A stretch of DNA of 29,034 bases from Allobaculum sp. (GCA_051873775.1 JBJEFF010000154.1:1-29034), one strand, 5' to 3'; shown: positions 1,288 through 29,034, numbered from the stretch's first letter. Notes: generated by a model from the letters alone, not told the origin. Program-made: numbers and translations.

Positions 1288-3239
1288 TTACTCACCGCCT
1301 AATTCATAACTTTGCATCGGAGCTTTGACGACATGAATTCTCTGCTGCAGTTCACTTTGCAAAATCAGATCTTCATTGTCATCAAACAGGTGGAGGTCAA
1401 AGCCGGCAGCCCGGTTAACCTGAATCGTCAGCAGCTGACGCAATGCTTCAAACTGTTTGTACTGCATCGTTCCCATATATTCATGCATCGAAATAATCTC
1501 GACCTGTGGAAAATGCTGTTCCGGTTTTTCCAGATAGTCATAGATCGAAATGGATCTGGATTCTAACTGTTTTGCATTCGTCTCCTTACCCTGGAAAATA
1601 TACAGTCCGGTAATTTCATCTTCAGCCGCAATCGGCGAGATCGAAAACAGATAGCGATAGACAAGCGGAATTACTTTATAGTCTTTAACATTCTGATAAG
1701 ACGAATACTTGGCATCTCCGATGATGTAGCGGGCACCTTTCCAGTATCGGCTTTCCAGTTTAAGGATATAGTCCGGCGTGTAGTAGTGGCCTTTAGCAAT
1801 TTCACCCCAACCTCTAGGGAATGAGAGCGAAGTATTGCGGACCAGACCGGTTTTTACACACTCCGGATTCCCCGGTTCATAGATTACCGGTTCATAGTAA
1901 AGTGTAATTTTAACGTCTTTCTTTTCAAATTCGAAGTAGTTGTTCACTTCGGAATTCTGATAGAAATAAGCTTCGTTTTTGTCATATAGAACTTTATGAC
2001 TCGTGAGTAAGGTAAATCCGTTCTCTTTCATAAAATCCCCGAGTTTGGAAAGCACGTAGACTTCATACAGATTCGTGATCTGCAGAAATGCGGTCGCAAA
2101 ACGGATATCCCCTGCCGTGACATTCTTGAGCGCAAACCAGTTCTGAATTTCACTGAATACCTGACGGTACCCGCGGTTTCTCGCAAAGACAGGAGTCATT
2201 TTGGGTGGGGTGCTTAAATACTGCTCACGAGCCGGAATGATTTTTTCAAACATGCCGTGCAGACGATGGAATCCTACCTGAAGGTGTTGAATATCTTCTT
2301 TAAGATGGTTCAGGGTCAGAATTGTGGCCTTTGACATATAGACCGAGGAAGAGACATAACCTTTTTCCACTTCGAGTTTTTTGGGCAGCGTATCAATCAG
2401 CTGTTCAATTTCCACAGTCAGTCCAGCCAGTTCACGATTTATTGTGTTTAAAAACGAAAGAATAACCCGATTTTCATAGGTATCCGTACTGAGTGTTTTT
2501 GTCTGTATCATCCGTGTTGTAGGACTAAATGAATCACCGGCAACACGGGCGACACCCGGATTCGGCAAAGAAAGCGTATTAGGATGTCTTGTCATCTCCT
2601 TCATGCGACTATAGCTTACCATGGAACGGCTCGGAGATTTTTCTTCCTGAAATGCGCGGTTTGCCTGAATTTCACGCAGCGCAGATTCCATCAACACCGT
2701 GCAGCGTTTCAGCAGGCGGACCTTATCTTCAAGGGAATGCTGGGATTCAGCACACTGATCGTCGCACCGCATATAGTCGGCATTCGTTCCGTACAGCAGC
2801 AAGTCGCTATGCAATGCGGTGTATTTGCCGATCGCATTGGCATTGAAATTCTCCGGTCCGGGATGAACCATCACCTGGATATACGGGGTGACGAGACGAC
2901 AGTTTCCTTCTTTGCAGCGAAAGCTCAGCTCGATCTTTGCCAGCCCGAAGGAGTCGGCAAAGATACGGCTGTTGTTGTAAGGGTCGTAAAAGTAGATGCG
3001 GCCGGTATTGCCATGATAGGTGTTATTGACCGCATAGCCATTGACGAAAAATCAATGGAGCTGATATCGGACGTGATCGGAGACAGAAGCTGTCCGATAT
3101 AACTGCTGTTCGCAAAGATTTTCTGATCGGGAAGCTGAATCACTTTACTGATCGGCTGAACCTGTTTTGCGTCAAACAGGTCCAGTTCAATCAGATCCTG
3201 ATTCGCTTCGTCCATCAGACGAAGTCGGAATTCTCTCAT
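1288..3239 (-). pseudogene. McrC-like PD-(D/E)xK nuclease subunit (DUF2357/McrC family), interrupted by a +/-1 frameshift at an A5 run (3047-3051)
   Basis: The main ORF 1288-2874 (GTG start) carries a textbook C-terminal PD-(D/E)xK motif: YTPDYILKL...ARYIIGDAKY. Its frame stays open upstream to 3051 (…FFVNGYAVNNTYHGNTGRIYFYDPYNN…). A second ORF starts at an ATG that overlaps the stop of the upstream mcrB-like gene (ATGA at 3236-3239). It reads MREFRLRLMDEANQDLIELDLFDAKQ…SSIDF up to the same A5 run. Inserting one base in the run joins the two ORFs into one protein of about 650 aa. Confidence 0.65.
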
Positions 3240-5890
3240 TGTTCGAAATACTGGTAGTACTGCATGGATTCGTCTCCGTGTCTGAGTATGGCATCCAGTT
3301 TTGCCTTACTCATAGTTAGGTGATTCGTTTCCAGGCACTGTCCGATTCTGACTAAGACATTGCGGTAGCCGATCGAAGTGCCGTTAATCTGGGTCATCAT
3401 TCTCTGCAGAATCGCAAAGTCTAAGGCGATCAGTGCACTGTTGCGAAGAACATTTCCTTCTTCATCCGTTTCATCATCAAACCATCTAGCCGCATTGAGA
3501 ATATAGCGGCGAATGGCCTGATCGCTTCGGCGGGAGAGATACGTTCCAGCCTGAGCGAAGGCTTCACAAACGTTCTGATAAACAGATTCGAGATCGGAGG
3601 CAAGGTCAATATGAGTTGTATCGATATTGAACGCTCTGGCAAGCTGATCTTCGTTAAAGAGCTCGTCTGTTAAATGCAGCAGTTTTACCTTTTCATGCAG
3701 ATTTTCCTGATGCGGATGATCCGGCATGTTAATGACGAATGCACGGTCAAGCAGTCTTGCGGAAATTGGTTCGAACGACTGATCCGTCTGTATCGTAGCC
3801 GCAAAATGGAGCGCATCCGGAATCTGATAATTATAATTTTCACCGAGTTTGAGCGTACCGCGTATGAATCCGTGCGGCTTATCCCCTTCGTCGAGAACCA
3901 GTTCTGGTGTTTCCTGCATCGCCATAAAATCCGACCAGTAGTATTCCATATGAGAAAGGTTGGCATCATCGAGCATAATGAGTGCCGGAAGCATGCTTTC
4001 CTTCAGATTACGGCTTTGAATATTCAGAATGGAAAGCAGGTCAAATAATTGCGGATTCATTTTTTCAAAACTGTGCGTCAGTGAATTATAGAAGCCGATA
4101 AAGTCACGGGAATTCACCCAGCCCCGTTCCACCTGTACACGCACGAACCGGCTGCAGTTCATCATGCCCTCGTACTGGGATTCGACAGAGCGCGGTTTTT
4201 CAAGATTGAGAACTTCACGGACAATTTCCAGGGTACTCGATTTACCTGAACCAACCGGTCCCGTAAATAGTGTCATAAAGCTCTGATGCAGACAGATGAT
4301 GATATTCAGAATCTCATTGCGTGAGTAATCCGGACGGTATGCCGCAAAATTATGCACCAGCAGATTGACCATGCTTTCCGGATCAAGAACAGAAACGGGT
4401 AAGGCATTTATCAGACGGGCAGCCTGTACGCTGGACTGTTCAAGCAGCAAGCGTGCACGTTTTTCACTCTGTTCGCCGATGCGCTGGCTGATAATATGAT
4501 CGACACTCATCTCGAGTGCCTTATTAGCCGAACGTTCCAGAAGCTGATCCACCTGATTATCCAGATCGCGCAGCTGAGCTTTGAGCACATCACTTTCTTT
4601 CTGCATCCGTTCATTTTCCAGACGGAGCAGTGAGCTCTGCTTTTCAAGCTGTTCAACTTCACTCGCGAGATTGGCGGTTTTCAGTGTTTTCTTCAGCCGG
4701 TCTTCCGCCTGATTCTGCAGGCGCTGCAGTTCGGCGAGCGAGTTGCGGTAATTCTCAATTTTTCTGCTTGCTTCCAGTGTTGCAAGTTCACTGACCTGAG
4801 TTCTCAAATCCTGTTCAAGCTCTTTAAGATCGGCTACCTGTTCTTCCAGCTCCGTTTTCTGTTCATATAACGGCTTGAACGAATCAATCGAATGCAGGAA
4901 GTGATCGTCATGCGCAAGCGCATCGATCATCGTCGCATAGACCGGATCGTCCTTATACTGGACAAATAGCTCTCCGGCAAGTTTAGAAATCATGTCGAGT
5001 GTTTCGTCAAAATCAATTTTGGTTTTCAGCACAGTAAAGAGTTTGTTCTTACGTGCTTCTGCTGCTTCCTGAGAGAAATTATTCGGGGACAGCAGCCAGT
5101 TCTGATACACCTCCACCATATGGCGAGCACTATCTTCATTAAAGCGGTAATTTTTCGACATGCGCTTCTGGGTCAGTGTGCGCAGATCTTCAACTAATTC
5201 AGAGATAGTAATTTCATCGTAAATATAAGGTTCAACATTTTCACCGCCGACCTGCAGATAGGTTCGGGTTACATCTTCCTGTTCAAGCAGAACGGAATGA
5301 CGGAGAAGTCCGTCGGTAAACTGATAGCCGCGGATCACTTTATTCTGCGCATCCGCATTGCACCGTACAAAAATTACATTGTTAATTTCGTCGTAATGAA
5401 CTTTAAACGGTCCGATTACCACGTTTGGAATGTCACAGGCGAGCAATACCTCCATATTTTCATTAATGTTATTGCTGTCGATCTCAATACGGTTATCCGT
5501 GCGCCAGTCGCCGATCTGATACTTGCGATCCACCAGGCAGTAGCAGCCCAGTTCTTCCATGCGTCTTATTTTTCTGCCGTAAAGCTCGGCAATATCCAGT
5601 TTCCATGCACTCGGATATCTCGTACCGTCTATTTTGCAGTTAGGGAGTAAATCTTCCGTATCAAAATCAAGAATAAAATCGTCACCGTCCTGAAATATGT
5701 CCTCTAAAGAAATCAGACTGGAACTCGAAACTAAATTAATGTTCTGGTAAACCGAATTCGGTAAAAGCACTTCTAAATCCTGTCTGGTTAAATAATCAAA
5801 TTCCTGGTCATGATATAAATAGCCGGGATAAAAATTGACATAAAAACCGTTTCGCGTATTGATTTTAATTTCGCCAACATACGCTGCCAT
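3236..5890 (-). CDS. McrB-like AAA+ GTPase (AAA_5) with an N-terminal domain of about 330 aa (unknown function) and a central coiled coil; CoCoNuT/McrBC-like defence component
   Basis: Walker A LFTGPVGSGKSSTLEI. A Walker B block LIMLDDANLSHMEYYW…MQE and a downstream HFAATIQTDQSF…RLLDRAFVINMPD block align with McrB IIDEINRANLSKVFGE… and IIGLMNTADRS…RRRFSFIDI. An E/Q/L-rich heptad-like stretch of about 130 aa (ELEEQVADLKELEQDLRTQVSELATLEASRK…) lies N-terminal to the ATPase. RBS aaggtg. Confidence 0.75.
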   Translation of the reverse strand: MAAYVGEIKINTRNGFYVNFYPGYLYHDQEFDYLTRQDLEVLLPNSVYQNINLVSSSSLISLEDIFQDGDDFILDFDTEDLLPNCKIDGTRYPSAWKLDIAELYGRKIRRMEELGCYCLVDRKYQIGDWRTDNRIEIDSNNINENMEVLLACDIPNVVIGPFKVHYDEINNVIFVRCNADAQNKVIRGYQFTDGLLRHSVLLEQEDVTRTYLQVGGENVEPYIYDEITISELVEDLRTLTQKRMSKNYRFNEDSARHMVEVYQNWLLSPNNFSQEAAEARKNKLFTVLKTKIDFDETLDMISKLAGELFVQYKDDPVYATMIDALAHDDHFLHSIDSFKPLYEQKTELEEQVADLKELEQDLRTQVSELATLEASRKIENYRNSLAELQRLQNQAEDRLKKTLKTANLASEVEQLEKQSSLLRLENERMQKESDVLKAQLRDLDNQVDQLLERSANKALEMSVDHIISQRIGEQSEKRARLLLEQSSVQAARLINALPVSVLDPESMVNLLVHNFAAYRPDYSRNEILNIIICLHQSFMTLFTGPVGSGKSSTLEIVREVLNLEKPRSVESQYEGMMNCSRFVRVQVERGWVNSRDFIGFYNSLTHSFEKMNPQLFDLLSILNIQSRNLKESMLPALIMLDDANLSHMEYYWSDFMAMQETPELVLDEGDKPHGFIRGTLKLGENYNYQIPDALHFAATIQTDQSFEPISARLLDRAFVINMPDHPHQENLHEKVKLLHLTDELFNEDQLARAFNIDTTHIDLASDLESVYQNVCEAFAQAGTYLSRRSDQAIRRYILNAARWFDDETDEEGNVLRNSALIALDFAILQRMMTQINGTSIGYRNVLVRIGQCLETNHLTMSKAKLDAILRHGDESMQYYQYFEQ

Positions 5891-14651: not shown

Positions 14652-17366
14652 ATGAAAACGAAAAAATACCCCTTTACTCAGAACCGCGAACTCTCGTGGC
14701 TTAAATTCAACCAGCGTGTTCTCGAAGAAGCGGCGGATCCGCGCGTAGCCCTGCTCGAGCGCCTGAAATTCGTTGCGATTTTTACATCAAACCTCGATGA
14801 ATTTTTCATGGTGCGCTGCGGCAGTCTGCTTGATATGTCCTTAGTCGACAATAAAAAAACGGATAATAAATCCGGGATGACATCGACCCAGCAGCTCGAG
14901 GCTATTTACAGCGAAACCTCCAAGCTTTATAAAATGCGCGATACGGTTGTGCGCAATTTAACCAACACCCTGCGTGAAGTGCAGATTGAACCGCTCAGTT
15001 TCAAAAATCTCAACAAGAAACAGACGAAATTTATCACGTCATATTTTGAAAAAGAACTTTCCCCGCTCCTGGCTCCTCAGATTATGGATGTCCATCATCC
15101 CTTCCCTTTTCTAATCAACAAGGAGTGCTATATCTTTTTCCGCATAGTTGAAGAAGGCAAGACCCGTTACGGAATTGTCCCCATTCCTTCCTACCTGCCT
15201 TCCATTATTTATCTCAATGAGGAAAAGACCCAGTACATCCGGACCAGTCAGGTGATTCTTGCCCTGCTCGACCGCATGTTTGAAAAATCGCATATTACAT
15301 TCAAGACAATTATCCGTGTTACCCGTAATGCCGATATTAACCTGAATGCGGCGGATATCGAGGATGATGAAGATTACCGCTCCTATATGAAGACGATTCT
15401 CAAAAAGAGAAACCGTCTGACTCCGATCCGCCTTGAAGTTGCCCGCAATATCGATAATGAGGCCCTTAATTATCTGTGCAAGCAGCTGCATCTGCATAAA
15501 GCTCAGGTCTTCATTTCCAAGCACTGTCCGCTCGATCCGTCCTACCTCTTCAGTATGATTGACAAGCTGCCGATTCATCTCAATAAAGCGATGAGCTATA
15601 AAGCGATGACTCCGCAGACGAATTATCGTCTTAATCCGGATGAGTCGATCATGAATCAGGTTCTCGATCATGATGTGATGCTTTACTATCCGTATCAGGA
15701 TATCGACTTCTTCATTCGTCTTCTTAAGGAAGCGGCGAGCGATCCGCGTGTACTGTCCATTTCGATTACCATCTACCGTCTTGCCAAGAATTCCAAAGTT
15801 GTCAAGTATCTGTGCCGGGCAGCGGAAAACGGCAAGAATGTCACAGTTTTAATGGAACTGCGTGCCCGCTTTGACGAACAGAACAACATTCAGGCAGCTG
15901 AACGGCTTGAAGAGGCGGGTGTCAATGTCTTCTATGGTTTTGATGACTACAAAGTGCATTCCAAACTGATGCTCATGACGCTGAAAGACCACGATCATAT
16001 CCGGACCATCACTCAGATCGGAACCGGAAACTATAACGAAAAGACCAGCCATCAGTACACCGATTTTTCACTGATGACCCCGAATCCCGAAATCGGAATG
16101 GATGCGACCGCATTCTTCCAGAATATGAATGTCTCCAACCTGCATGGCGATTATAAAAAACTGATTGTTTCTCCAAATCAGCTTAAAGAAGCGGTCATCA
16201 ATATGCTTGATGAACAGATTGCCTTAGCTCAGGAAGGAAAGAAAGCCCGTGCCTGGTTTAAGATGAACTCTTTAACCGACCTTGAACTGATCGCTAAACT
16301 TACCGAAGCTTCTCAGGCGGGTGTTGAGATCCGCATGATCATCCGCGGCATCTGCTGCATTCTGCCGGGATTGAAGAATTATACCGAGAACATCGAAATT
16401 CATTCGATTGTCGGCCGTTTCCTGGAACATGGTCGTATGTATCTGTTCGGTGAAGGAGAAAATGAGAAAATTTATATTTCTTCAGCCGATTTCATGACCC
16501 GAAATACCGAACGCCGTGTTGAAGTGGGTGTTCCGGTCGAAGACGAACAGTTACGCAATGAGCTGCATGAATACTTTGAACTGCAGTTCAAAGACAACAT
16601 CAAAGGAAGAAAACTGCTTCCTTCCGGTTATTACACCAAACTCGATTCTGACAGTGAAGAACTGATTGATTCACAGGATAAATTTATCGAGATCGCCCGG
16701 GACCGCCGGTTCAGACCGATTGCCGATGTCAAGAAGATGGTTTCCTTCACCACAAAGGCTAGAACGCTCTATCCGTACAGCACTCCGGCTAAAAACCTCT
16801 TTACTTTCGCTCAGAATCAGAATCCGTTTAACCAGAACCCTCTAAACGAAGGTATCGACAATATGATGCTGCCGCTCGATACTCCCGCCTTACAGGTCGT
16901 GGAAAACACCCGTACAGTCGAAAAAATCATTTCTGCTCCCCAAGACCCGCTGCCAGTTCTACTACAGACCCAGACAATTGAAACTCCTGTTCAACCGGAT
17001 CAGCCCATTCTGATTCAGACAGAACCAGAACCAGTCGTAACTGAAGATATGCCTGATCCAGTCACTCTCTCCGACCCAGTGGAAAAAGAGACTGAAAACA
17101 CAATTGAAGAAATCACTGAAACCAAACCAGATCCCCGGATTGACACTGAAGTAATTGCTACAACCGTGCCAACAGAAAGCGAAGTAACAAAAAATACAGA
17201 AGAACCGGTTCATGAACCATCTAAACCTCAGACAGATCATCCGGAACCAGCCACTGTTGTCAGCGAGAAAACGGACCCGGACACTGAGCCGCAGCACGAC
17301 AAAACAAAATCTGCTTCTCCAGAGCCTTCTTCATGGTTCAAAAAATTCTTGGACTTCTTCCGCTAA
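14652..17366 (+). CDS. ppk: Polyphosphate kinase 1 with a C-terminal low-complexity extension of about 200-230 aa
   Basis: Canonical PPK1 N-terminus NRELSWLKFNQRVLEEAADPRVALLERLKFVAIFTSNLDEFFMVR and a PLD-like C-domain. The protein is 904 aa, against about 700 for typical PPK1. The last ~225 residues are P/E/T/Q/D-rich and non-globular. Confidence 0.85.
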   Translation: MKTKKYPFTQNRELSWLKFNQRVLEEAADPRVALLERLKFVAIFTSNLDEFFMVRCGSLLDMSLVDNKKTDNKSGMTSTQQLEAIYSETSKLYKMRDTVVRNLTNTLREVQIEPLSFKNLNKKQTKFITSYFEKELSPLLAPQIMDVHHPFPFLINKECYIFFRIVEEGKTRYGIVPIPSYLPSIIYLNEEKTQYIRTSQVILALLDRMFEKSHITFKTIIRVTRNADINLNAADIEDDEDYRSYMKTILKKRNRLTPIRLEVARNIDNEALNYLCKQLHLHKAQVFISKHCPLDPSYLFSMIDKLPIHLNKAMSYKAMTPQTNYRLNPDESIMNQVLDHDVMLYYPYQDIDFFIRLLKEAASDPRVLSISITIYRLAKNSKVVKYLCRAAENGKNVTVLMELRARFDEQNNIQAAERLEEAGVNVFYGFDDYKVHSKLMLMTLKDHDHIRTITQIGTGNYNEKTSHQYTDFSLMTPNPEIGMDATAFFQNMNVSNLHGDYKKLIVSPNQLKEAVINMLDEQIALAQEGKKARAWFKMNSLTDLELIAKLTEASQAGVEIRMIIRGICCILPGLKNYTENIEIHSIVGRFLEHGRMYLFGEGENEKIYISSADFMTRNTERRVEVGVPVEDEQLRNELHEYFELQFKDNIKGRKLLPSGYYTKLDSDSEELIDSQDKFIEIARDRRFRPIADVKKMVSFTTKARTLYPYSTPAKNLFTFAQNQNPFNQNPLNEGIDNMMLPLDTPALQVVENTRTVEKIISAPQDPLPVLLQTQTIETPVQPDQPILIQTEPEPVVTEDMPDPVTLSDPVEKETENTIEEITETKPDPRIDTEVIATTVPTESEVTKNTEEPVHEPSKPQTDHPEPATVVSEKTDPDTEPQHDKTKSASPEPSSWFKKFLDFFR

Positions 17367-20370: not shown

Positions 20371-20404
20371 AAAAAAAAGCCATTTCCCAAAATCAGGAAA
20401 TGAC
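20371..20404 (-). terminator. Terminator after the TPM-domain gene
   Basis: On the - strand, stem gtcatttcc / ggaaatgg is followed by a T8 run. Confidence 0.5.
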
Positions 20405-20419
20405 TTAACGTTGAATATT

Positions 20420-21223
20420 TTAGAATTTTCCACTGCGTCCGCTTCCGCCGCCTCCGCTTTCACGAGAAGAGCTGGATTTTTTCTCAATCGTCCGCCTAGT
20501 TACGGTAGTATGCGTAAACTGATCTGACTGAGCAGTAAGCTGAACACCAGCTATGGCATAGGATTTTGCTTCTTCTTTAGCATGCACAGACTCCATTTTT
20601 TCTTTCTGTTGCCAGCAGATTATAAAGGCAACCGCCATTGATATTCCAATGGAGCCGAGAATGTAAAGCACAGGACTCTTTTTAACCGGTTTGCCTTCTG
20701 CCGCCTGAATAATACACTTTTCGGCTGTATCGAGATAGTCATTCAAACCGGCATTCCAGTCATTATCTCCGAAGTCATCCAGGAATGCGTCTTCCAGCAG
20801 ATCGCGGGCATAATCATTAAATGCATATTCTGCTTTCTCGCCGTGAACAAATAAGGCATAATCACGATCTTCCATACTCAGAAGCAGGAGAATGCCGTCC
20901 CGGTTCTCACCGAAGCCATATTCATTCGCTTCATTATTATATATCTCAGTTGCTACATTGTAGACACTCGATCCGGAACCATATAACTCGTAGTCATCAA
21001 GGATCACAACATACACCCCGCAGCCCTGGTCAACCGAAATATTTGTTGCTTTCACTTCCAGCTCTTCCCATTCATCTTCATTTAGAATTTCTTCCATATC
21101 AATGACGTGCACTTTACCATTTTCCAGCTGGTAGTAATCTTCCTCAGAAGTGGCAAAAACCGGAAAGCTAAAAGACAGCATCAGAAGCAAGGCAGAAAGG
21201 AAGCTCATTATTTTATTTTTCAT
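20420..21223 (-). CDS. TPM-domain protein (TLP18.3/Psb32/MOLO-1 fold; YdjH/UPF0603-like): signal peptide, TPM domain, TM helix, Gly-rich tail
   Basis: N-terminal signal peptide (MKNKIMSFLSALLLMLSFSFPVFA). TPM motifs (VIDMEEILNEDEWEELE…VYVVIL…NRDGILLLLSMEDRDYALFVHGEKAE). One TM helix (VLYILGSIGISMAVAFIICW). C-terminal SSSSRESGGGGSGRSGKF. Confidence 0.7.
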   Translation of the reverse strand: MKNKIMSFLSALLLMLSFSFPVFATSEEDYYQLENGKVHVIDMEEILNEDEWEELEVKATNISVDQGCGVYVVILDDYELYGSGSSVYNVATEIYNNEANEYGFGENRDGILLLLSMEDRDYALFVHGEKAEYAFNDYARDLLEDAFLDDFGDNDWNAGLNDYLDTAEKCIIQAAEGKPVKKSPVLYILGSIGISMAVAFIICWQQKEKMESVHAKEEAKSYAIAGVQLTAQSDQFTHTTVTRRTIEKKSSSSRESGGGGSGRSGKF

Positions 21224-21235
21224 TGTCTTACTCCT

Positions 21236-22351
21236 TTACACGATCGCAATCGAAATCAGCGATCCGATTATGCTGAGCGGAATCGAAATTGCCGCAAAGA
21301 GCGCCCAGAAGCGTGGCCAGCTCATCGGCAGATCCCCGACCAGACGTCCGGTCTGACCGTTCATCGCAAATAGATAGTCTTTTCCTTCATATTTCGTATT
21401 GAGCATCCAGACAGGCATCAGTGCGTAATGAACCTTCCCGCGAGCCAGACTGGTCGAGTCAGATAAGCGGATACAGCTCATATAACCCTGAACTGTCTCC
21501 TGGAGTGAATCGAGACAGGTATTCTTACAGCGCAAGTCTGCACGCTCTGTACTCTCATCGACAGAAACATCGTATTTATCGGCCAAAAAGCCCGGTAAAT
21601 AAGCCATTGAAAATGGTTTTAATTCGTCGTAGTCATACGGTTCAATGGAATCCATCAGGTCATCCGGCATTTTGCTTGAAGCATCTACTGGCACTTTTTC
21701 AAAAGGCAGCATTCCGGCACGGTATACCTGGAAATGATCTGTTTCAGTGACTTCTTCATCCCCTACCCGATAAATACGCGAACGCGTTGCCTCAAACTGC
21801 GCCTGTCCGCTTGCAGTACCATCAAACAACCAGAACGGCACATAGACACCCTGAATTTCTTCAATATGGTTGTGGTCTGTAAATGCTTTAGGCAGGAATA
21901 GTTTTCCTTTGTAATGATTCTTCAGTGCCGCAATCGCATCTTCCTTGCTCAGTTTAAACGGAATGACAAAGTCCGGTTTGAGAGTTCCGCCAAACTGTCC
22001 GGGAACAATTGTCGGATTTCCGCAGTACGGGCAGGAAGTTGCAGCAGTGCTCTCATCACAGATCAGCTCTGCACCACATGCCGGACAACTGTAGGATTTC
22101 ATCTTTCCCGCATCACTGCCCCAGTCATCACCCATTGCGGATGCATCCCAGCTCATATCTGTACCATTTTCAGGTGGTGTAGGAGGAACACTACCTGTTT
22201 CTGGCTGATCTTTCGCCGGATAAAGCGCTTCAATCTCTTCGACATCGTATTGCGCGCCACAGTAATCACATTCCAGTTTGCCGGTTGCTCCCACGAAATG
22301 CAGAGGTCCGGTACAAGCCGGGCACTGGTAGTTTGTTACCTGTTCAGGCAT
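21236..22351 (-). CDS. Double zinc-ribbon protein with a C-terminal transmembrane anchor (YdjG-like?)
   Basis: Two CxxC…CxxC ribbons: YQCPACTGPLHF…LECDYCGAQY and YSCPACGAELICDE…TSCPYCGNPT. The C-terminal hydrophobic helix is FWALFAAISIPLSIIGSLISIAIV. I place the start at ATG 22351 (MPEQV…), which is preceded by ggagaaagaggtgatttt. The ORF-track start at 22393 has no RBS. Confidence 0.6.
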   Translation of the reverse strand: MPEQVTNYQCPACTGPLHFVGATGKLECDYCGAQYDVEEIEALYPAKDQPETGSVPPTPPENGTDMSWDASAMGDDWGSDAGKMKSYSCPACGAELICDESTAATSCPYCGNPTIVPGQFGGTLKPDFVIPFKLSKEDAIAALKNHYKGKLFLPKAFTDHNHIEEIQGVYVPFWLFDGTASGQAQFEATRSRIYRVGDEEVTETDHFQVYRAGMLPFEKVPVDASSKMPDDLMDSIEPYDYDELKPFSMAYLPGFLADKYDVSVDESTERADLRCKNTCLDSLQETVQGYMSCIRLSDSTSLARGKVHYALMPVWMLNTKYEGKDYLFAMNGQTGRLVGDLPMSWPRFWALFAAISIPLSIIGSLISIAIV

Positions 22352-22398
22352 AAAATCACCTCTTTCTCCTTCTTTTTCTGTTTTCATTTTCATTTTTC

Positions 22399-22435
22399 TG
22401 AAAAAAGACAGCCCGTCAGTTTCCGGACGGGCTGT
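22399..22435 (-). terminator. Intra-cluster terminator/attenuator hairpin between the lipoprotein and double-ribbon genes
   Basis: A 10-bp stem acagcccgtc / gacgggctgt is followed on the - strand by cttttttcag. Confidence 0.55.
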
Positions 22436-22583
22436 TTAAAGCTTCTTGTTATAGATTGAAATAATACTGTTGCGCCCTCAATGAGTTATTGATCGGTTAC
22501 GGGCTACCCGTTACCGTAAGATTTTTCCTCTTTTAGATTCTGTTGCTGAATTCTGATCTGCTGACCAAACTCTGATTGCCCGC

Positions 22584-23075
22584 TTATTCAGATTCAGATT
22601 CAGACTCGTAATCCAGTAATTCGCTGTCGTCAAACCATGTCGAAGAAGGAATATCGTCTTTGCTTCCCTTCTTGAAAGACAGAGAATCTCCTTCAAATTC
22701 CATGGTCATTACGTCATCTTTTACGGTGTAATCCATGGTGTCTCCATCGGCTGTAATTTTACCCGGTGTCCAGGTCAGGTCATATTCCTGATCAATACTG
22801 ATTGTGCCTGTTCCATCTTCTTTTAATTCGATCCAGAACATACCGACTAAACCGATACTGTCGAGGAATTCTTCATCCATCGTTTCGCCATCTGCTGTCA
22901 TCGAGGACAAAAGCCATACGCCGGCATCTTTTGATGTATCAGCTTTGTTTCCACCGTTTCCACTACATGCGACCAGGACTAGAGACATGGTCATCGCAAG
23001 AAACATCGTGATTAGTTTGTTTAGTTTTTTCATGATCCTTTTTCTCCTTTTAGTTTCATTGATTTTCTTCAACAA
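22584..23075 (-). CDS. Lipoprotein (lipobox LVAC), acidic C-terminal SESESE tail
   Basis: MKKLNKLITMFLAMTMSLVLVAC|SGNGG shows a signal peptide and lipobox. The 3' (tcagat)x3 microsatellite encodes ESESESE. Confidence 0.65.
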   Translation of the reverse strand: MLKKINETKRRKRIMKKLNKLITMFLAMTMSLVLVACSGNGGNKADTSKDAGVWLLSSMTADGETMDEEFLDSIGLVGMFWIELKEDGTGTISIDQEYDLTWTPGKITADGDTMDYTVKDDVMTMEFEGDSLSFKKGSKDDIPSSTWFDDSELLDYESESESE

Positions 23076-23078
23076 AAA

Positions 23079-24233
23079 CTAGCGCGGACGAGGTGTGCCG
23101 CAGCAGTCACAGAAATTTCCTGTGTTTGTTGAATTGCAGTTCGGGCAGATCCATGAACCGCTGTTCATGGCAGTATTATTGAAAGAAGCATTGTTATTCA
23201 TCTGCGGATTATTCGGCTGACCATATCCCGTCTGGGAATTGTTCATCATTCCGTTATTCGGCTGACCGTATCCCATCTGAGAATTATTCATCATGCCGTT
23301 ATTCGGCTGACTGTATCCCATCTGAGAATTGTTCATCATTCCGTTATTCGGCTGACCGTATCCCATCTGAGAATTGTTCATCATTCCGTTATTCGGCTGA
23401 CCGTATCCCATCTGAGAGTTATTCATCATACCGTTATTCGGCTGACCATATCCCATTTGCGGATTGTTCATCATGCCGTTATTCATCTGACCATTATTCA
23501 TCATTCCGGCACCATAGCCTTGTGCCATCTGAGTTCCATAACCGTTCTGACCTGCCGACATGCCATAAGCTAAACCGTTTAATGTTTGACAGATTTCATC
23601 AGCCAACCGTTTATACTGCTGGTATTCCAGGTTGTAAGAAGGATCGAAACCCATAGGTCTTCCAAAGGATGAACTTCCCATGCCGTGGTTCATGAATCCT
23701 GAACCTTCAGAGATGATTTCGACACTGCTCGGATTAATCTGGAATTTCATTTCATCAAAGAATTCGTTTTTGACCGTTACGACGATATCGAAATCATAAC
23801 TGTATCTGAAACGAGGCGGATTATAGCTGACTTTGTTGCCATCCTTGTCTTCTCGTTTCAGTTCTGTGTGTCTTTCATCAATGGATAAGTTGCAGCTCGT
23901 CAGATCAGTAAAGTTGAGAATATCCGGATTCGCTTCTGCGAGGTTTCTTGCCCGTGTTACAGTGAACCAGCGATGATTGTCATCGATCAGAACACGCCAG
24001 TTTTCACCGAGCTGACGGGTAATCTGAAACTGAGCCACTTTCTTCTTGTTTTCTTCACGGTAGTCCAGCTGCTTTTTAATATCAGCAACGGTCGAATGGC
24101 GGCGTTCATTAAACCAGATTGAAAGCTTTCCTGCACAGTTTTTACAGAGATTGCCATCTTCCAATTTGCGGTTGCCGAGCATTCCAATTTTGTCGCCGCA
24201 GATATCGCAGTATTTTTTATCAAAAAAGCCCAT
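23079..24233 (-). CDS. Zinc-ribbon protein: N-terminal CxxC…CxxC ribbon, central domain, (GYGQPNNGMMNNSQM)x6 low-complexity repeats, C-terminal ribbon
   Basis: N-terminal YCDICGDK…CKNCAGK. C-terminal WICPNCNSTNTGNFCDCCGTPRP. The repeats span aa 255-335. Confidence 0.6.
   Translation of the reverse strand: MGFFDKKYCDICGDKIGMLGNRKLEDGNLCKNCAGKLSIWFNERRHSTVADIKKQLDYREENKKKVAQFQITRQLGENWRVLIDDNHRWFTVTRARNLAEANPDILNFTDLTSCNLSIDERHTELKREDKDGNKVSYNPPRFRYSYDFDIVVTVKNEFFDEMKFQINPSSVEIISEGSGFMNHGMGSSSFGRPMGFDPSYNLEYQQYKRLADEICQTLNGLAYGMSAGQNGYGTQMAQGYGAGMMNNGQMNNGMMNNPQMGYGQPNNGMMNNSQMGYGQPNNGMMNNSQMGYGQPNNGMMNNSQMGYSQPNNGMMNNSQMGYGQPNNGMMNNSQTGYGQPNNPQMNNNASFNNTAMNSGSWICPNCNSTNTGNFCDCCGTPRPR
23206..23505 (-). 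repeat. 45-bp direct tandem repeat, about 6.5 near-identical copies, in-frame coding (15-aa G/N/M/Q-rich unit)
   Basis: The unit ccgttattcggctgaccgtatcccatctgagaattgttcatcatt is read at 23206-23250, 23251-23295 and onward to about 23505, with 1-4 mismatches per copy. Confidence 0.9.
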
Positions 24234-24389
24234 TTGTTTCCTCCTTTTCCATGACGGACAGGATCGCGGGCAGGCTGGGCGGGAATGTCTTTAGAAAGGA
24301 TAGTTTTAGAACACAACGGTTTGCTTCCAACCTGCCAGGACCCTTTTTACTGTTTAATGAATAAATGACTGAATGTTCAGAATGTGAAA

Positions 24390-25901
24390 CTATACAGCAC
24401 CGTTGTCATCAAACGGGTCGCCGCATTCCGGACAGAATTTAGGCGGATGAGTCGGATCTGCCGGTTCCCAGCCGCATTTATTACACTTGTATTTCTTTAT
24501 AGCTTCCGGTTTTTTCGTTCCGCACTCAGAGCAGAATTTTCCCTGGTTTACGGCACCGCAGGTCGGGCATGTCCATCCTGCCGGTTTATCTTCCGGTTTC
24601 TTTGTTCCGCATTCCGGGCAGAATTTTCCGGTTGCATTTGCTCCGCAGGTCGGACAGATCCATCCTGCCGGTTTTGGTTCCGGTTTTTTCGTTCCGCATT
24701 CCGGGCAGAATTTTCCGGTTGCGGTTGCTCCGCAGGTCGGGCACGTCCAGCCATCAGCCGGTGCAGGTGCCGGAGTCGGTGCCTGCGCAGCCTGCTGCAT
24801 CTGCTGTTTTTGCTGTTCTAACTGCTGCTGCTGAAGCTGCAGCTGTCTTTGCTGTTCTTCAAGCTGCTTTTGCTGTTCCTGCTGCTGACCCATCGCATAC
24901 ATATTCTGGGCAGCACCGAATCCGCCGTTGCCCATCATGCCATTCGCCATGCCCATGCCCATGAAACCAGTCATTGCACCAGCTGTATTACCAGCTGCGG
25001 TCTGCATCGCATTTGCGGTTGCATCGGTCATACGACCTGCCATCATCTGAGCGCTGGAACCAAAAGTAGCTGCATCTTCGATTTCCTGAACTTTCTTCAT
25101 ATCTTCGTCGGTCAGACGGATCGGGTTCAGAGAAATGGTCTGGATGGTTACACCGCGTTCGCCCCAGCTTTCCTGAAGCTCGGCGTTCATTGCTTTTTTC
25201 AGATCTTTTACTTTTGACGGAATCTGAGCCGGACGGAGTTCCTCTTCAGCCAGCACACCGACTGCAGGCTGGAGAGCGTCCATGAAGTCTGCCTTGAGCT
25301 GTCCGTCAATATTGTCACGGGTATATTCCTCAGCTACGTTGCCGCAAATTCGTGTATAGAACAGCAGCGGATCGGAAATGGTATAGGTATAGACACCGTT
25401 GAAACGGAGATTTACCGTACGGCGCATATTGATCGCTTTATTAACGACTTCGAAAATAATCGGTGCCGGAGTTCCGAATTTGTTGTCGAGAATTTCCTTG
25501 GTATTGAAGTAGTAAACTCTCTGATCCATCGGTGCTTCTCCACCGAAAGTGAATCGTTTACCGACGGTCGCAAAGCTCTGTTTTAAGCTTTCACCGAAAC
25601 TTCCGGCAAAAATTGAAGGTGATGTCGTCGAATCGTAGGTATATTCGCCTGGTTCTGCGCAGACTTCCACGACTTTTCCCTGTTCGACGATCATCATGCA
25701 CTGACCATCTGCAACGGCGATGACAGAACCATTCGAAATAATGTTGTCATTGCCTTTTGTATTGCTCGAACGTTTGGATGTCCGTTTCTTGCCTTTTGTT
25801 GCTAATACATTTGGCGGCAGCGATTCACAGTAGAAGTACTCCTTCCACTGATCGGCTAAAACTCCGCCACCGGCTCCCATTGCCGCTTTAATGAGTCCCA
25901 T
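24390..25901 (-). CDS. SPFH (band-7-like)/COG4260 YdjI-like protein with a Q-rich coiled coil and four C-terminal zinc ribbons
   Basis: The N-terminus MGLIKAAMGAGGGVLADQWKEYFY and about 300 aa are typical of the COG4260 'virion core protein'/SPFH family. Next come QQQEQQKQLEEQQRQLQLQQQQLEQQKQQ, then 3x GW(T/I)CPTCGAxATGKFCPECGTKKPE and KCNKCGW…FCPECG. RBS gggagg. Confidence 0.6.
   Translation of the reverse strand: MGLIKAAMGAGGGVLADQWKEYFYCESLPPNVLATKGKKRTSKRSSNTKGNDNIISNGSVIAVADGQCMMIVEQGKVVEVCAEPGEYTYDSTTSPSIFAGSFGESLKQSFATVGKRFTFGGEAPMDQRVYYFNTKEILDNKFGTPAPIIFEVVNKAINMRRTVNLRFNGVYTYTISDPLLFYTRICGNVAEEYTRDNIDGQLKADFMDALQPAVGVLAEEELRPAQIPSKVKDLKKAMNAELQESWGERGVTIQTISLNPIRLTDEDMKKVQEIEDAATFGSSAQMMAGRMTDATANAMQTAAGNTAGAMTGFMGMGMANGMMGNGGFGAAQNMYAMGQQQEQQKQLEEQQRQLQLQQQQLEQQKQQMQQAAQAPTPAPAPADGWTCPTCGATATGKFCPECGTKKPEPKPAGWICPTCGANATGKFCPECGTKKPEDKPAGWTCPTCGAVNQGKFCSECGTKKPEAIKKYKCNKCGWEPADPTHPPKFCPECGDPFDDNGAV
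24503..24755 (-). repeat. 87-bp tandem repeat x3, each unit encoding a zinc-ribbon motif
   Basis: The units are about 24503-24589, 24590-24677 and 24678-24755 (…ttccgcattccgggcagaattttccggttgc…gctccgcaggtcgg…). They account for the spurious + strand ORFs here. Confidence 0.85.
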
Positions 25902-26424: not shown

Positions 26425-26463
26425 AAAAAAAAATCCCAGCCTGCCAATGGCTAAGCTGGGATT
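26425..26463 (-). terminator. Terminator after the response-regulator gene
   Basis: A 9-bp stem aatcccagc / gctgggatt is followed on the - strand by a T9 run. Confidence 0.65.
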
Positions 26464-26500: not shown

Positions 26501-27157
26501 TTATGAAGGTTCACCGGACATTTCCGCGTCTTCCGGCAGATTGGGGATAATGAATTTTTTATTGGTTACCGCAATCGCCAGACGGGTCTTGTTGGCATAA
26601 CCTGTTTTCATCAGGATATTTGAAATATGGTATTTTACTGTCCGCTCGGCGATTCCAAGTGTCTGGGCAATTTCGCTGTATTCCAGTCCGTAACAGACCA
26701 GACGGAGCACCCGGATTTCTTTAGGGGTCAGATCCGTACTGTCTGCCATGCCCAGTTTAACTTTAGGAGTTGCATCCGGAAAAAGATGCTCGCCTGCCAT
26801 GGTCCGGTCAATTACATCAATCAGTTTTTCGGGGCTGATGTCCTTGTACCAGAAACTATCCACGTTGGCAGCTCTTGCCCGGTCGAGGAAACTAACCTCC
26901 ACCATTGAGGTAACAATGACAATTTTAATTTTGGGATAAGCGGCTTTAATCTCAGCGGCAACTTCAATGCCATCACGGGTTCCCGTCGTACACACATCCA
27001 TTAAAATCAGGTCAATCTGCTGCTGTCTGCAGATAACCGGCGCAATGTCTGCCCCGTTAATACTTGCCGCAACGGAATACCGCCCTGTATCTATCAGAAG
27101 ATGTTCCATATGTTCACGCGGCATCCGCTGATCTTCTACAATCAGGACATAATTCAT
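26501..27157 (-). CDS. NarL/FixJ-family response regulator (REC + LuxR-type HTH)
   Basis: REC with LIVEDQ…LILMDV…KIVIVTS. The C-terminal LuxR HTH is LTPKEIRVLRLVCYGLEYSEIAQTLGIAERTVKYHISNILMK. Confidence 0.85.
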   Translation of the reverse strand: MNYVLIVEDQRMPREHMEHLLIDTGRYSVAASINGADIAPVICRQQQIDLILMDVCTTGTRDGIEVAAEIKAAYPKIKIVIVTSMVEVSFLDRARAANVDSFWYKDISPEKLIDVIDRTMAGEHLFPDATPKVKLGMADSTDLTPKEIRVLRLVCYGLEYSEIAQTLGIAERTVKYHISNILMKTGYANKTRLAIAVTNKKFIIPNLPEDAEMSGEPS

Positions 27158-28440
27158 ATTTTTCTCTCCTGTTCCTTCGGCAGTTCAAGTTCCAGTGCAA
27201 AAACCGGAAAAGACTGGATTTTCATCGTTCCCCCTAAGTTTTGAACATTGCGGGAAAGGTTCTGCAGACCGCCTTTCGGTACAATCTCCTCTTTAGGAGC
27301 AAGTCCGTTATTCGTAATGTGGATTCCAACATGGTCTGGTGTGTCTGTCATTTCAATGAACAGCTGATCAGCCTGGGCATGGCGGACCCCGTTAATCAGG
27401 CATTCTCTCATCGCCATGATCCGCAGATCATAAAGCTGTTCATCTTCAGGAAGATGACCGGTAAGATGAACGGTTACACCGATAGTTCCGGCATCCTGAA
27501 TGAATTTCTGCAGCTCGGTCTTTTCAGGAAGGTACTTATTATCATTTTTTATGGCACTGACTGCGTGACGGAGCAGATCCGCCACATTCGTGGTTTCATG
27601 ATTATGGTCTAAAAGTAAAGACTGACGCAGTACCGTCAGGCATCCGCCCATCTGATCGTGTAATCTGGTTTTAGCCGAGAGAATTTCCTTTTCACGGGTG
27701 AGAAGGAGTGCGTTATCGGAGAGAGCTTTCAGCTCCTCGGCAATCGTCTGCAACTGTTCGGTCTGCTTTATTAATTCCAGATTTTTTTCGTACTGGTCTG
27801 TAACATCGGAAAAGACCGCTTCAGTATAAGAAGTCCCATCTTTGCCCGTCAGATGACTTTCTGAATAGTGCCACGCTTTACCATCCGGGAAGAGATAGTT
27901 CTTTCTTTCTCTCGACAGACAGAGAATTCCAGTATGTGAATCACAGTCTTCTAATGCCTGACGAAGTTCATCAATCGTCTGCAGATCGGTCTGCATGATG
28001 GAGTGATACAGATGATGCATCTGCCGGTTGCAGAGTTTCACAGTCCCCTGTTCGGTAAAGTAGCACACTCCGCTAGGCAGCTGATCGATGGCTTCCTTGA
28101 TGGAATTATTGCTTAGCTGCATGCGGTAAAACTTACGGACCTGTCCTAACGACCATAAAAGATACACCGTCAGGACCATTTCGATCAGCCAGATGCACCC
28201 CATCGGAACGACCATCCCCTGAGTAAGCAGCAGTCCTTCATCGATCAGATACACCAAATAGGAGCACCATGAAAGCGCAGCAAACTGAATCAGAAAGAGG
28301 AGCAGACAGACTCCTTTTTTTCCGGGTCCGTCTTTAGTGAAACTGATCAGACAAAGAAACAGAATGATAATCAGATTGAGCAGCATATACAGCATCAGCA
28401 GAAACTGACTGCCTGCCGAACTCAGCGCAAAAGGTCTCAT
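27154..28440 (-). CDS. Sensor histidine kinase, HisKA_3/NarX-LiaS type, with multi-TM N-terminus and a PAS-like cytoplasmic domain
   Basis: About four N-terminal TM helices. H-box LHDQMGGCLTVLRQ. HATPase_c motifs (LINGVRHAQADQ…, GGLQNLSRNVQNLGG). It overlaps the RR start by 4 bp (ATGA), consistent with translational coupling. Confidence 0.8.
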   Translation of the reverse strand: MRPFALSSAGSQFLLMLYMLLNLIIILFLCLISFTKDGPGKKGVCLLLFLIQFAALSWCSYLVYLIDEGLLLTQGMVVPMGCIWLIEMVLTVYLLWSLGQVRKFYRMQLSNNSIKEAIDQLPSGVCYFTEQGTVKLCNRQMHHLYHSIMQTDLQTIDELRQALEDCDSHTGILCLSRERKNYLFPDGKAWHYSESHLTGKDGTSYTEAVFSDVTDQYEKNLELIKQTEQLQTIAEELKALSDNALLLTREKEILSAKTRLHDQMGGCLTVLRQSLLLDHNHETTNVADLLRHAVSAIKNDNKYLPEKTELQKFIQDAGTIGVTVHLTGHLPEDEQLYDLRIMAMRECLINGVRHAQADQLFIEMTDTPDHVGIHITNNGLAPKEEIVPKGGLQNLSRNVQNLGGTMKIQSFPVFALELELPKEQERKI

Positions 28441-28444
28441 AAAT

Positions 28445-29034
28445 TCACCTCCGCTTTTTACAGGAATAAGTAAACCGCCATACTCCGTCTTCGCAGTCAG
28501 TCATATCTCCCTCTTTTACAAAGTCGGTAAGATCTTCACTCGTTTCGACTTCAAGAGTAAAGAGGATAGAATCTTCAAGATTGCGTGCTTTGAGCCATAC
28601 CGAATAAAGGTGTCCAAGACTCTTTTCAATTACACCTTCAAAAAAATCGTAGACCTGATTGACCTGTACGACAGATATCTTTTCCCCGACCGGAATATCG
28701 ATTGCACAATCGACATCCATCAGACGAAGGCTCATAAACGATTCTTCAAGACATGCCGCAAGTTCAGCCGTATCCGTCATTACCGTTTTTTCACCGATAA
28801 AAACAAGATTGCCTCTGCGCTTAAGATAAGTGCCGATTACACCGATTCGCGCAAGAAGGCTGCGCTGAAGAACAGGATCATCAGCTGCTTCATAACGGGT
28901 CAGCAGGTCATCAAGCAAATCAATCTGACTCGATGTCTGCTCCTGAAGCTGTTCATACAGACGCGTTTTTTCACGGAGGGTATGAATCCTTATTTTCGTA
29001 CGGTAGTTCTTTTCTTCCACATCGTTATTTCTCG
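28445..29034 (-). CDS. Hypothetical protein, 5'-partial (the frame continues past the window edge); possibly a degenerate GHKL/kinase-like C-terminal domain
   Basis: The frame is open to 29034. The listed GTG at 29020 is not necessarily the start. It ends 4 nt before the HK start, so it is probably the same operon. No confident motif. Confidence 0.35.
   Translation of the reverse strand, partial: RNNDVEEKNYRTKIRIHTLREKTRLYEQLQEQTSSQIDLLDDLLTRYEAADDPVLQRSLLARIGVIGTYLKRRGNLVFIGEKTVMTDTAELAACLEESFMSLRLMDVDCAIDIPVGEKISVVQVNQVYDFFEGVIEKSLGHLYSVWLKARNLEDSILFTLEVETSEDLTDFVKEGDMTDCEDGVWRFTYSCKKRR

Follow-up and report, generated by a model that had tools for sequence, protein, structure and literature searches.

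We analysed a window of 29,034 bp, one whole contig of a metagenome-assembled genome of Allobaculum sp., in which five co-directional open reading frames (ORFs) on the minus strand (20420-25901) encode, in order, an SPFH protein, a DUF4428 protein, a short lipoprotein, a double zinc-ribbon protein whose C terminus is a membrane helix, labelled G4 here (longest ORF 21236-22393), and a TPM-domain protein. The SPFH, G4 and TPM proteins are homologous to YdjI, YdjG and YdjH of Bacillus subtilis (SamI, SamG and SamH). We consider it probable that the cluster encodes a membrane complex of the SamGHI/YdjGHI type, i.e., a membrane-anchored SPFH scaffold or stress sensor without an operon-encoded PspA. 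To our knowledge, SamGHI/YdjGHI has been studied only in B. subtilis, and it is usually seen as an accessory of PspA. The kind of system is known; what is new is its expanded clostridial form, which has no PspA gene nearby and carries a DUF4428/PH-like protein. We found no published description of this clostridial or gut form in the literature searched.

The alignments and profiles against the B. subtilis proteins lead us to conclude that the three genes are true homologs of ydjGHI. The reference proteins came from a B. subtilis-type locus (L088), reached with a PspA query (P0288), where pspA is accompanied by genes for a 341-amino-acid (aa) Zn_Ribbon_TF protein (ydjG), a 254-aa TPM protein (ydjH) and a 323-aa Band_7_1 protein (ydjI). 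G4 aligns with YdjG over its full length (36% identity, E 4e-77) and the family profile matches it with an hhalign probability of 100% (E 5.5e-68). Both proteins have two zinc ribbons at the N terminus, a PepSY/NTF2-like domain and a C-terminal transmembrane (TM) helix. Pfam gives only weak zinc-ribbon matches for the longest ORF of G4. Its true start is likely to be at 22351, giving 371 aa, because a ribosome-binding site lies there and a 371-aa database protein matches; an exact database look-up of the 385-aa ORF found no match, the true protein beginning at M15. The SPFH protein matches Pfam Band_7_1 (E 7.4e-18) and DZR zinc ribbons. It lacks a TM helix, and its SPFH domain is followed by G/M-rich and Q-rich stretches and then, at the C terminus, by four zinc ribbons, an arrangement close to that of YdjI, which combines Band_7_1, no TM helix, a region of low complexity and one C-terminal ribbon. 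The BLASTP match between the two (24% identity over 361 aa, E 5e-10) is collinear, beginning in the SPFH domain, crossing the G/M-rich stretch and reaching the terminal ribbon, and the profile comparison gives 99.3% probability (E 1.6e-20). The TPM protein (Pfam TPM_phosphatase, E 8.4e-18) has a signal peptide, a TPM domain, a TM helix and a predicted cytoplasmic tail with a TTVTR motif and a Gly-rich end. Its family profile matches YdjH with 97.2% probability (E 3.9e-11, 223 columns) over a stretch that goes from the signal peptide through the TPM domain and TM helix to the tail motif, and YdjH has the same layout, TTVTR tail included.

The first-pass annotation of this DNA, made from the sequence alone, had compared the cluster to the PspA partners YdjGHI and described the trio as rearranged and expanded. 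Both statements stand, as does the order of pspA followed by ydjG, ydjH and ydjI that it gave, which is the order in L088. Its descriptions of the five products were also accurate: all five ORFs are present, and we recovered an SPFH protein ending in four zinc ribbons (Pfam and motif count), a protein with N- and C-terminal ribbons and a 15-aa repeat in six copies (DUF4428 ribbon, motif count and Tandem Repeats Finder), a lipoprotein (lipobox), a double zinc-ribbon protein with a C-terminal TM helix (motif count and sequence reading) and a signal-peptide TPM protein with a Gly-rich tail (Pfam and sequence reading). The SPFH and TPM assignments, for which profile searches had been proposed as a check, are thus supported. 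The spacing of the genes is the exception: the gaps were put at 3-156 bp, and the one between the lipoprotein gene and G4 is 190 bp from the longest ORF and 232 bp from the likely start of G4.

The window and the pspA-samGHI locus of B. subtilis both have clustered, co-directional genes. They differ in that the window has no pspA gene and the order is I...G-H instead of G-H-I. Genes for a DUF4428/PH-like protein and for a lipoprotein are inserted, and where YdjI has a single ribbon the SPFH protein has four. Upstream, a NarL-type two-component system and a small receiver-like gene take the place of the sigma-W promoter, and a terminator-like hairpin precedes G4 instead of following pspA. Counting CxxC...CxxC motifs assigns four ribbons to the SPFH protein, two to G4 and one to the DUF4428 protein. 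By the CxxC count, the relatives of the SPFH protein mostly have one ribbon, and some have three, with a CxC spacing variant. In the window, ribbons 1-3 are encoded by an 87-bp tandem repeat, which indicates a recent amplification.

How widespread is this arrangement? Relatives of G4 number in the thousands (7080 clusters at 50% identity, E <= 0.001), and a scan of one genome per species found at least 599 matching stretches, with at least 574 confirmed relatives. We kept the best 80 of the latter, which are 62-71% identical to G4 of the window, called genes by a codon-usage score, clustered their products and counted gene orders over 82 loci. These best 80 relatives come mostly from Oscillospiraceae and other gut Clostridia, with one Erysipelotrichaceae genome. 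G4 was found in 75 of the 82 loci, TPM in 70 and SPFH in 63, and the SPFH gene is present wherever a locus has over 8 kb of upstream sequence. The three YdjGHI-type genes are linked and co-directional in the window and across these loci, in the order SPFH, 0-7 variable genes, G4, TPM. TPM directly follows G4 in 62 of 75 loci, and the number of genes between SPFH and G4 goes from none (17 loci) to seven (12 loci). The DUF4428 protein is encoded in 41 of the 82 loci, always after the SPFH gene. Hence, when the co-conservation of the five genes is checked, SPFH, G4 and TPM pass, whereas the DUF4428 gene is present in about half of the loci and the lipoprotein family is rare. The invariant core is made of these three genes, and what recurs at the position of the lipoprotein is the slot, not the lipoprotein family. 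A conserved order of SPFH, G4 and TPM across dozens of species is far beyond chance, and, given a conserved core with variable insertions, the window carries a compact version of a widespread cluster.

The gut Oscillospiraceae and Lachnospiraceae clusters (e.g., Dysosmobacter sp. Phy, Flintibacter, Flavonifractor, Agathobaculum) have the core and order of the window, with the DUF4428/PH-like protein after SPFH and lipoproteins between it and G4. They comprise 8-13 genes, whereas the window has a minimal five with a single small and rare lipoprotein. Their extra genes encode DUF5067 lipoproteins, AIM24, TM2 and DUF6935 proteins, and lipoproteins of 350-500 aa before and after G4-TPM, and their TPM proteins are mostly ~440 aa long, compared with 267 aa in the window. 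Identity between the window and its Oscillospiraceae homologs is ~70% for G4, 43-51% for TPM and 53-65% for SPFH. Five bins labelled Bacteroidaceae, Hallerella, Anaerovibrio or Alistipes carry a G4 that is 62-68% identical to that of the window; these are either mis-binned Firmicutes contigs or cases of horizontal transfer. In seven loci large serine recombinases lie no more than ~5-8 kb from the cluster, on its downstream side in six and upstream in one, and the Dysosmobacter sp. Phy locus, one of the six, also has an IS110 transposase nearby. This hints that in some species the cluster borders or rides on integrated elements.

The first-pass annotation had noted that the window lacks a PspA or LiaH gene, and our profile search agrees. 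A hidden Markov model (HMM) seeded with Escherichia coli PspA (checked against PDB 4WHE), Synechocystis Vipp1 and B. subtilis PspA (checked against Bacillus PspA), which recovers its own seeds, had no match in 5982 six-frame ORFs from 88 loci (the window and 87 others, up to ~21 kb each). Operon linkage to pspA was thus found neither in the window nor in the 87 other loci, no PspA gene lies within about 10 kb of the cluster in any related locus examined, and the PspA_IM30 (ESCRT-III-like) protein that marks a Psp system is missing from the loci searched. More distant relatives have SPFH-G4-TPM in Enterococcus gallinarum and SPFH-G4 in Comamonas and Paracoccus, with no PspA gene annotated within 6-7 kb on either side. 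In one of them, Paracoccus ferrooxidans pFER4, the SPFH-G4 pair is directly downstream of a gene for a TelA-like "toxic anion resistance protein" and a DUF2927 gene, another stress-related context for this pair. The absence of PspA in both related and distant loci indicates that the PspA-free layout is the usual one and that the linkage seen in Bacillus looks lineage specific. In gut Firmicutes this layout is common, not exceptional.

These data bear on a first alternative: the genome may encode a PspA/IM30 (ESCRT-III-like) protein at another site, and the complex would be its receptor at the membrane, as in B. subtilis, where YdjI brings PspA to damaged membrane. There, the formation of PspA foci at the membrane depends on YdjI (PMC8581546). 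Ravi et al. suggest that partner operons free of PspA may draw on a PspA from another part of the genome (PMC11237479), and most bacterial lineages are reported to have the PspA_IM30 family. Yet no PspA gene was found in the 88 loci or in the three distant annotated ones, and the SamGHI phenotypes of B. subtilis are independent of PspA: SamI restrains SamGH signaling, and PspA is dispensable for that phenotype (bioRxiv 10.64898/2026.02.06.704340). We therefore regard a PspA receptor as unlikely and favor a SamGHI-type complex that works without an operon-encoded PspA. The positions of the genes, repeats and hairpins discussed above and below are given in Table 1.

Table 1. Features of the SPFH-G4-TPM cluster and its upstream neighbors in the 29,034-bp window, in order of coordinates
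Feature	Coordinates	Strand	Basis or remarks
Terminator-like hairpin	20377-20406	-	13 bp stem, then T-run; directly after TPM gene
TPM-domain protein, 267 aa (YdjH/SamH homolog)	20420-21223	-	Pfam, profile
G4, 371 aa (YdjG/SamG homolog)	21236-22351	-	BLASTP, profile
Terminator-like hairpin	22408-22435	-	10 bp stem, 7 GC pairs, then T-run; in lipoprotein-G4 gap
Small lipoprotein, ~149 aa	22584-23033	-	Lipobox LVAC in sequence; longest ORF from 23075
DUF4428 protein, 384 aa	23079-24233	-	Pfam DUF4428 E 1.3e-15
45-bp x6.3 tandem repeat	23209-23492	.	Tandem Repeats Finder, 91% matches; encodes DUF4428 low-complexity linker
SPFH (Band_7_1) protein, 503 aa (YdjI/SamI homolog)	24390-25901	-	Pfam, BLASTP, profile
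87-bp x2.9 tandem repeat	24500-24749	.	Tandem Repeats Finder, 83% matches; encodes SPFH ribbons 1-3
Small receiver-like protein, ~127 aa	25952-26335	-	Sequence and start site; 50 bp upstream of SPFH gene
Terminator-like hairpin	26435-26455	-	Between response-regulator gene and small receiver-like gene
Two-component system	26501-28440	-	Kinase 27154-28440; response regulator 26501-27157
HisKA_7TM-type multi-TM sensor-like C-terminal fragment	28445-29034	-	Cut by contig end

The genes inserted in the core are of two sorts. The DUF4428 protein has, in order, an N-terminal ribbon, which sequence and alignment identify as the DUF4428 domain itself, a helix, a PH-like domain, a second helix, the Q/N/G/M-rich 15-aa repeat and a C-terminal ribbon that matches ribbons 1-3 of the SPFH protein in type. 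One architecture holds across the family: a ribbon at the N terminus is followed by a conserved globular domain (~160 aa) and a helix, and a linker of low complexity, different from lineage to lineage, leads to the C-terminal ribbon. In three sister contigs (L002-L004) the protein has 369 aa, one 15-aa unit shorter than in the window; since the copy number of the 45-bp repeat differs between near-identical strains, the length of this disordered linker is polymorphic. The PH-like fold comes from a structure model, and the family profile has only insignificant zinc-finger matches in the PDB. SNIPE nucleases that lack a TM helix carry a PH domain or DUF4428 at the N terminus instead (10.1101/2025.11.03.685801), a replacement that suggests a membrane-targeting role for DUF4428. 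Taken with the model, this suggests that the DUF4428 protein could be a membrane-peripheral adaptor.

Lipoproteins make up most of the other inserted genes. The one of the window, which probably starts at 23033 (149 aa), has no Pfam match and a weak, sub-threshold match to TIGR03067. Beyond the window and six sister contigs its family was found only in two loci (L043 and L085), at other positions, and elsewhere the slot is filled by unrelated lipoproteins. Their mature domains are unrelated to each other (DUF5067 and several families without a Pfam match), and the accessory lipoprotein families resemble one another in their signal peptides only, except for A3-A11. AIM24, TM2, DUF6935 and DHH/DHHA1 proteins are also found among the inserted genes. 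An AIM24-family protein follows the DUF4428 gene in many expanded clusters, and in some others (seven loci) a DHH/DHHA1 phosphoesterase lies between the lipoprotein genes and G4. We considered a "GKFC-x2-CG" ribbon as a tag of the accessory proteins and rejected it, its frequency without the SPFH and DUF4428 families being 8/303 compared with 9/574 (p = 0.31).

Could the lipoproteins be what the complex is for? In a scaffold for lipoprotein biogenesis or quality control, an SPFH cage would organize a membrane patch where lipoproteins mature, stay or are turned over. Such a role would fit the abundance of lipoproteins with unrelated mature domains among the inserted genes, the caging of membrane clients such as FtsH by other SPFH proteins, and the finding that loss of SamI blocks secretion of BslA in B. 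subtilis. However, genes for a protease, a signal peptidase or an Lgt/Lsp-like enzyme are missing from the cluster, and about 17 loci consist of SPFH-G4-TPM with no inserted gene, so that lipoproteins are not required for the function of the core. For these reasons we give little credence to this scaffold, and treat the lipoproteins as possible additions to a SamGHI-type complex.

The variability of the insertions also brings to mind an anti-phage or abortive-infection membrane system, in which damage done to the membrane by phage would be sensed by the core, and pressure from phage would drive the diversification of the accessory genes. Several observations go in this direction: the accessory genes differ greatly between loci, orders carry the cluster in a patchy pattern while G4 keeps an identity of 62-71%, large serine recombinases lie near the cluster in 7 loci, G4 homologs occur in some records deposited as phage, DUF4428 is also the N-terminal domain of SNIPE defense nucleases, and the sigma-W regulon of B. 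subtilis, which includes pspA-ydjGHI, responds to phage infection. Against them, PADLOC 2.0 had no significant match for any core or accessory protein (the matches of the cluster itself have E >= 5e-4 and are driven by ribbons and coiled coils), and the core has no nuclease, protease, NTPase or other obvious effector. Furthermore, the cluster is flanked by housekeeping genes in the window, and G4 is very strongly conserved (mean column identity of 78%), unlike typical defense genes. A primary role in defense seems to us improbable, and a SamGHI-type membrane complex remains the reading we prefer.

The transcription signals of the window suggest that the cluster may be split. The hairpin in the gap between the lipoprotein gene and G4 lies ~55 nt upstream of the G4 start and has an RNAfold energy of -20 kcal/mol; it may divide or attenuate the cluster into an SPFH-DUF4428-lipoprotein unit and a G4-TPM unit. 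A comparison across loci found a comparable hairpin before G4 in only 7 of 72, the window counted, and we rejected a pre-G4 terminator as a conserved feature. The hairpin after the TPM gene is likely to be the end of the cluster. An Rfam scan of the window found no RNA family. At the other end, the SPFH transcription unit probably begins with the small receiver-like gene. The product of this gene has no Pfam match; homologs (families f33 and f21; hhalign 97.3%, E 2.6e-11) flank the cluster in at least 10 loci. This receiver-like family of ~125 aa stands beside SPFH...G4-TPM in the window and eight other loci, sometimes at both ends.

Further upstream, the first-pass annotation had placed a LiaSR-like system. 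A two-component system is indeed there, although it is a general NarL/HisKA_3-type one and not specifically Lia, and the receiver-like gene intervenes between it and the cluster. The kinase is a membrane histidine kinase, with a HisKA_3-type H-box (LHDQMGG) in its sequence and weak HATPase and PAS matches, and the response regulator is of the NarL/LuxR type (Pfam Response_reg and GerE). Their best NCBIfam matches are generic (UhpB, NarL, MadR), LiaS scoring 22.9 bits against a cut-off of 450. The sensor-like fragment that accompanies them is 35% identical to the C terminus of a protein of another locus (L045, 3200-4909) that has Pfam HisKA_7TM. Homologous kinase, regulator and receiver-like genes are upstream of SPFH in four other loci (L043, L045, L051, L085), and other loci have a membrane LuxR-type regulator with a solute-binding protein instead.

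A NarL-family two-component system beside the cluster gives the window a likeness to the envelope-stress systems LiaFSR-LiaIH and PspABCF of E. coli, which pair a membrane sensor with a cytoplasmic restraining or scaffold protein, a logic that has also been proposed for SamGHI. The likeness is incomplete: we detected no PspA or LiaH, Pfam scans of the cluster and upstream ORFs revealed no PspB, PspC, LiaF, LiaI or Toastrack, and the four upstream ORFs scanned had no match to LiaF, Toastrack or PspA-like families. The set of LiaS, LiaR and LiaF with LiaI/LiaH is therefore not found here. SPFH-NfeD operons (e.g., QmcA-YbbJ; HflK/C with FtsH) share with the window an SPFH scaffold gene placed beside a membrane partner that it supposedly organizes. 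In contrast to them, the window has no NfeD match among the ORFs scanned, its SPFH protein is of the Band_7_1 type without a TM helix, and the partners are a YdjG-like protein and a TPM protein.

How might the complex work? Protein contacts, topology, stress sensing and the regulatory link are here inferred, with B. subtilis as the guide. There, YdjG and YdjH are required for the membrane localization of YdjI (PMC8581546). By analogy, the tail-anchored G4 (SamG-like) and the bitopic TPM protein (SamH-like) would form a membrane-integral platform, with the TPM domain outside the cell and a short tail in the cytoplasm. This platform could draw the soluble, SamI-like SPFH protein to the inner side of the membrane, where it would oligomerize into a scaffold. 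The G4/TPM complex, organized or held in check by this scaffold, would sense perturbation of the envelope or membrane. A function in envelope stress would likewise follow from the B. subtilis case. On the cytoplasmic side, the DUF4428 protein would join as an additional adaptor at the membrane periphery. The lipoprotein could be an extracytoplasmic partner or client, its relatives carrying up to several unrelated lipoproteins at this position. Expression or signaling is probably linked to the neighboring two-component system of the NarL type and to the small receiver-like protein.

These proposals should be interpreted with caution, since several points weigh against them. The experimental support comes from B. 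subtilis and not from clostridial or erysipelotrichial members. The similarity between the TPM protein and YdjH is visible with profiles only, pairwise BLASTP matching just the cytoplasmic tail motif, and the AlphaFold2 (AF2) model of G4, built on a shallow alignment, is of low confidence (predicted local distance difference test, pLDDT, 58). Only about 5 of 63 loci have the two-component system linked to the cluster, hence regulatory coupling is not general, and the strong hairpin before G4 means that the five genes may not share one transcript. The role of the variable lipoproteins falls outside what a SamGHI-type scaffold explains. Finally, our search covered the loci only, and the effector may still be a PspA whose gene lies in another part of the genome.

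Two regions of the contig away from the cluster deserve mention. The polyphosphate kinase encoded at 14652-17366 (plus strand, 904 aa) has a C-terminal tail of ~200 aa with a high content of Pro, Glu and Thr, an unusual feature in PPK1. An 884-aa protein (3236-5890, minus strand) matches the PADLOC candidate model PDC-M26A (E 1.2e-8) and, weakly, JetC; it is followed on the same strand by a 104-aa ORF (2925-3239) and a 528-aa PD-(D/E)XK_7 protein (1288-2874). This trio (1288-5890) may be of a defense type, unrelated to the SPFH cluster.

What do these clusters mean for the SamGHI family? The presence of close G4 relatives in at least 574 species, the 82 loci without nearby PspA, the strong conservation of G4 (~70% identity between Erysipelotrichaceae and Oscillospiraceae) and the acquisition of DUF4428 proteins and lipoproteins jointly argue for the trio as the primary unit and for PspA as a lineage-specific addition. 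One could go further and speculate that the SPFH/YdjG/TPM core is an ancient membrane platform independent of PspA, which in gut Clostridia and Erysipelotrichaceae has come to serve as a docking site for fast-changing lipoproteins and for adaptors tagged with a zinc ribbon or PH domain, such as the DUF4428 protein, thereby coupling the state of the cell surface to cytoplasmic signaling. In this full form the idea is a long shot. Were it true, the complex would not be a Psp accessory; it would be a distinct envelope-surveillance machine that senses lipoprotein cargo, phage or host attack. The clusters described here indicate an unstudied envelope system in abundant gut anaerobes, and they provide comparative targets for working out what a SamGHI-type complex senses.

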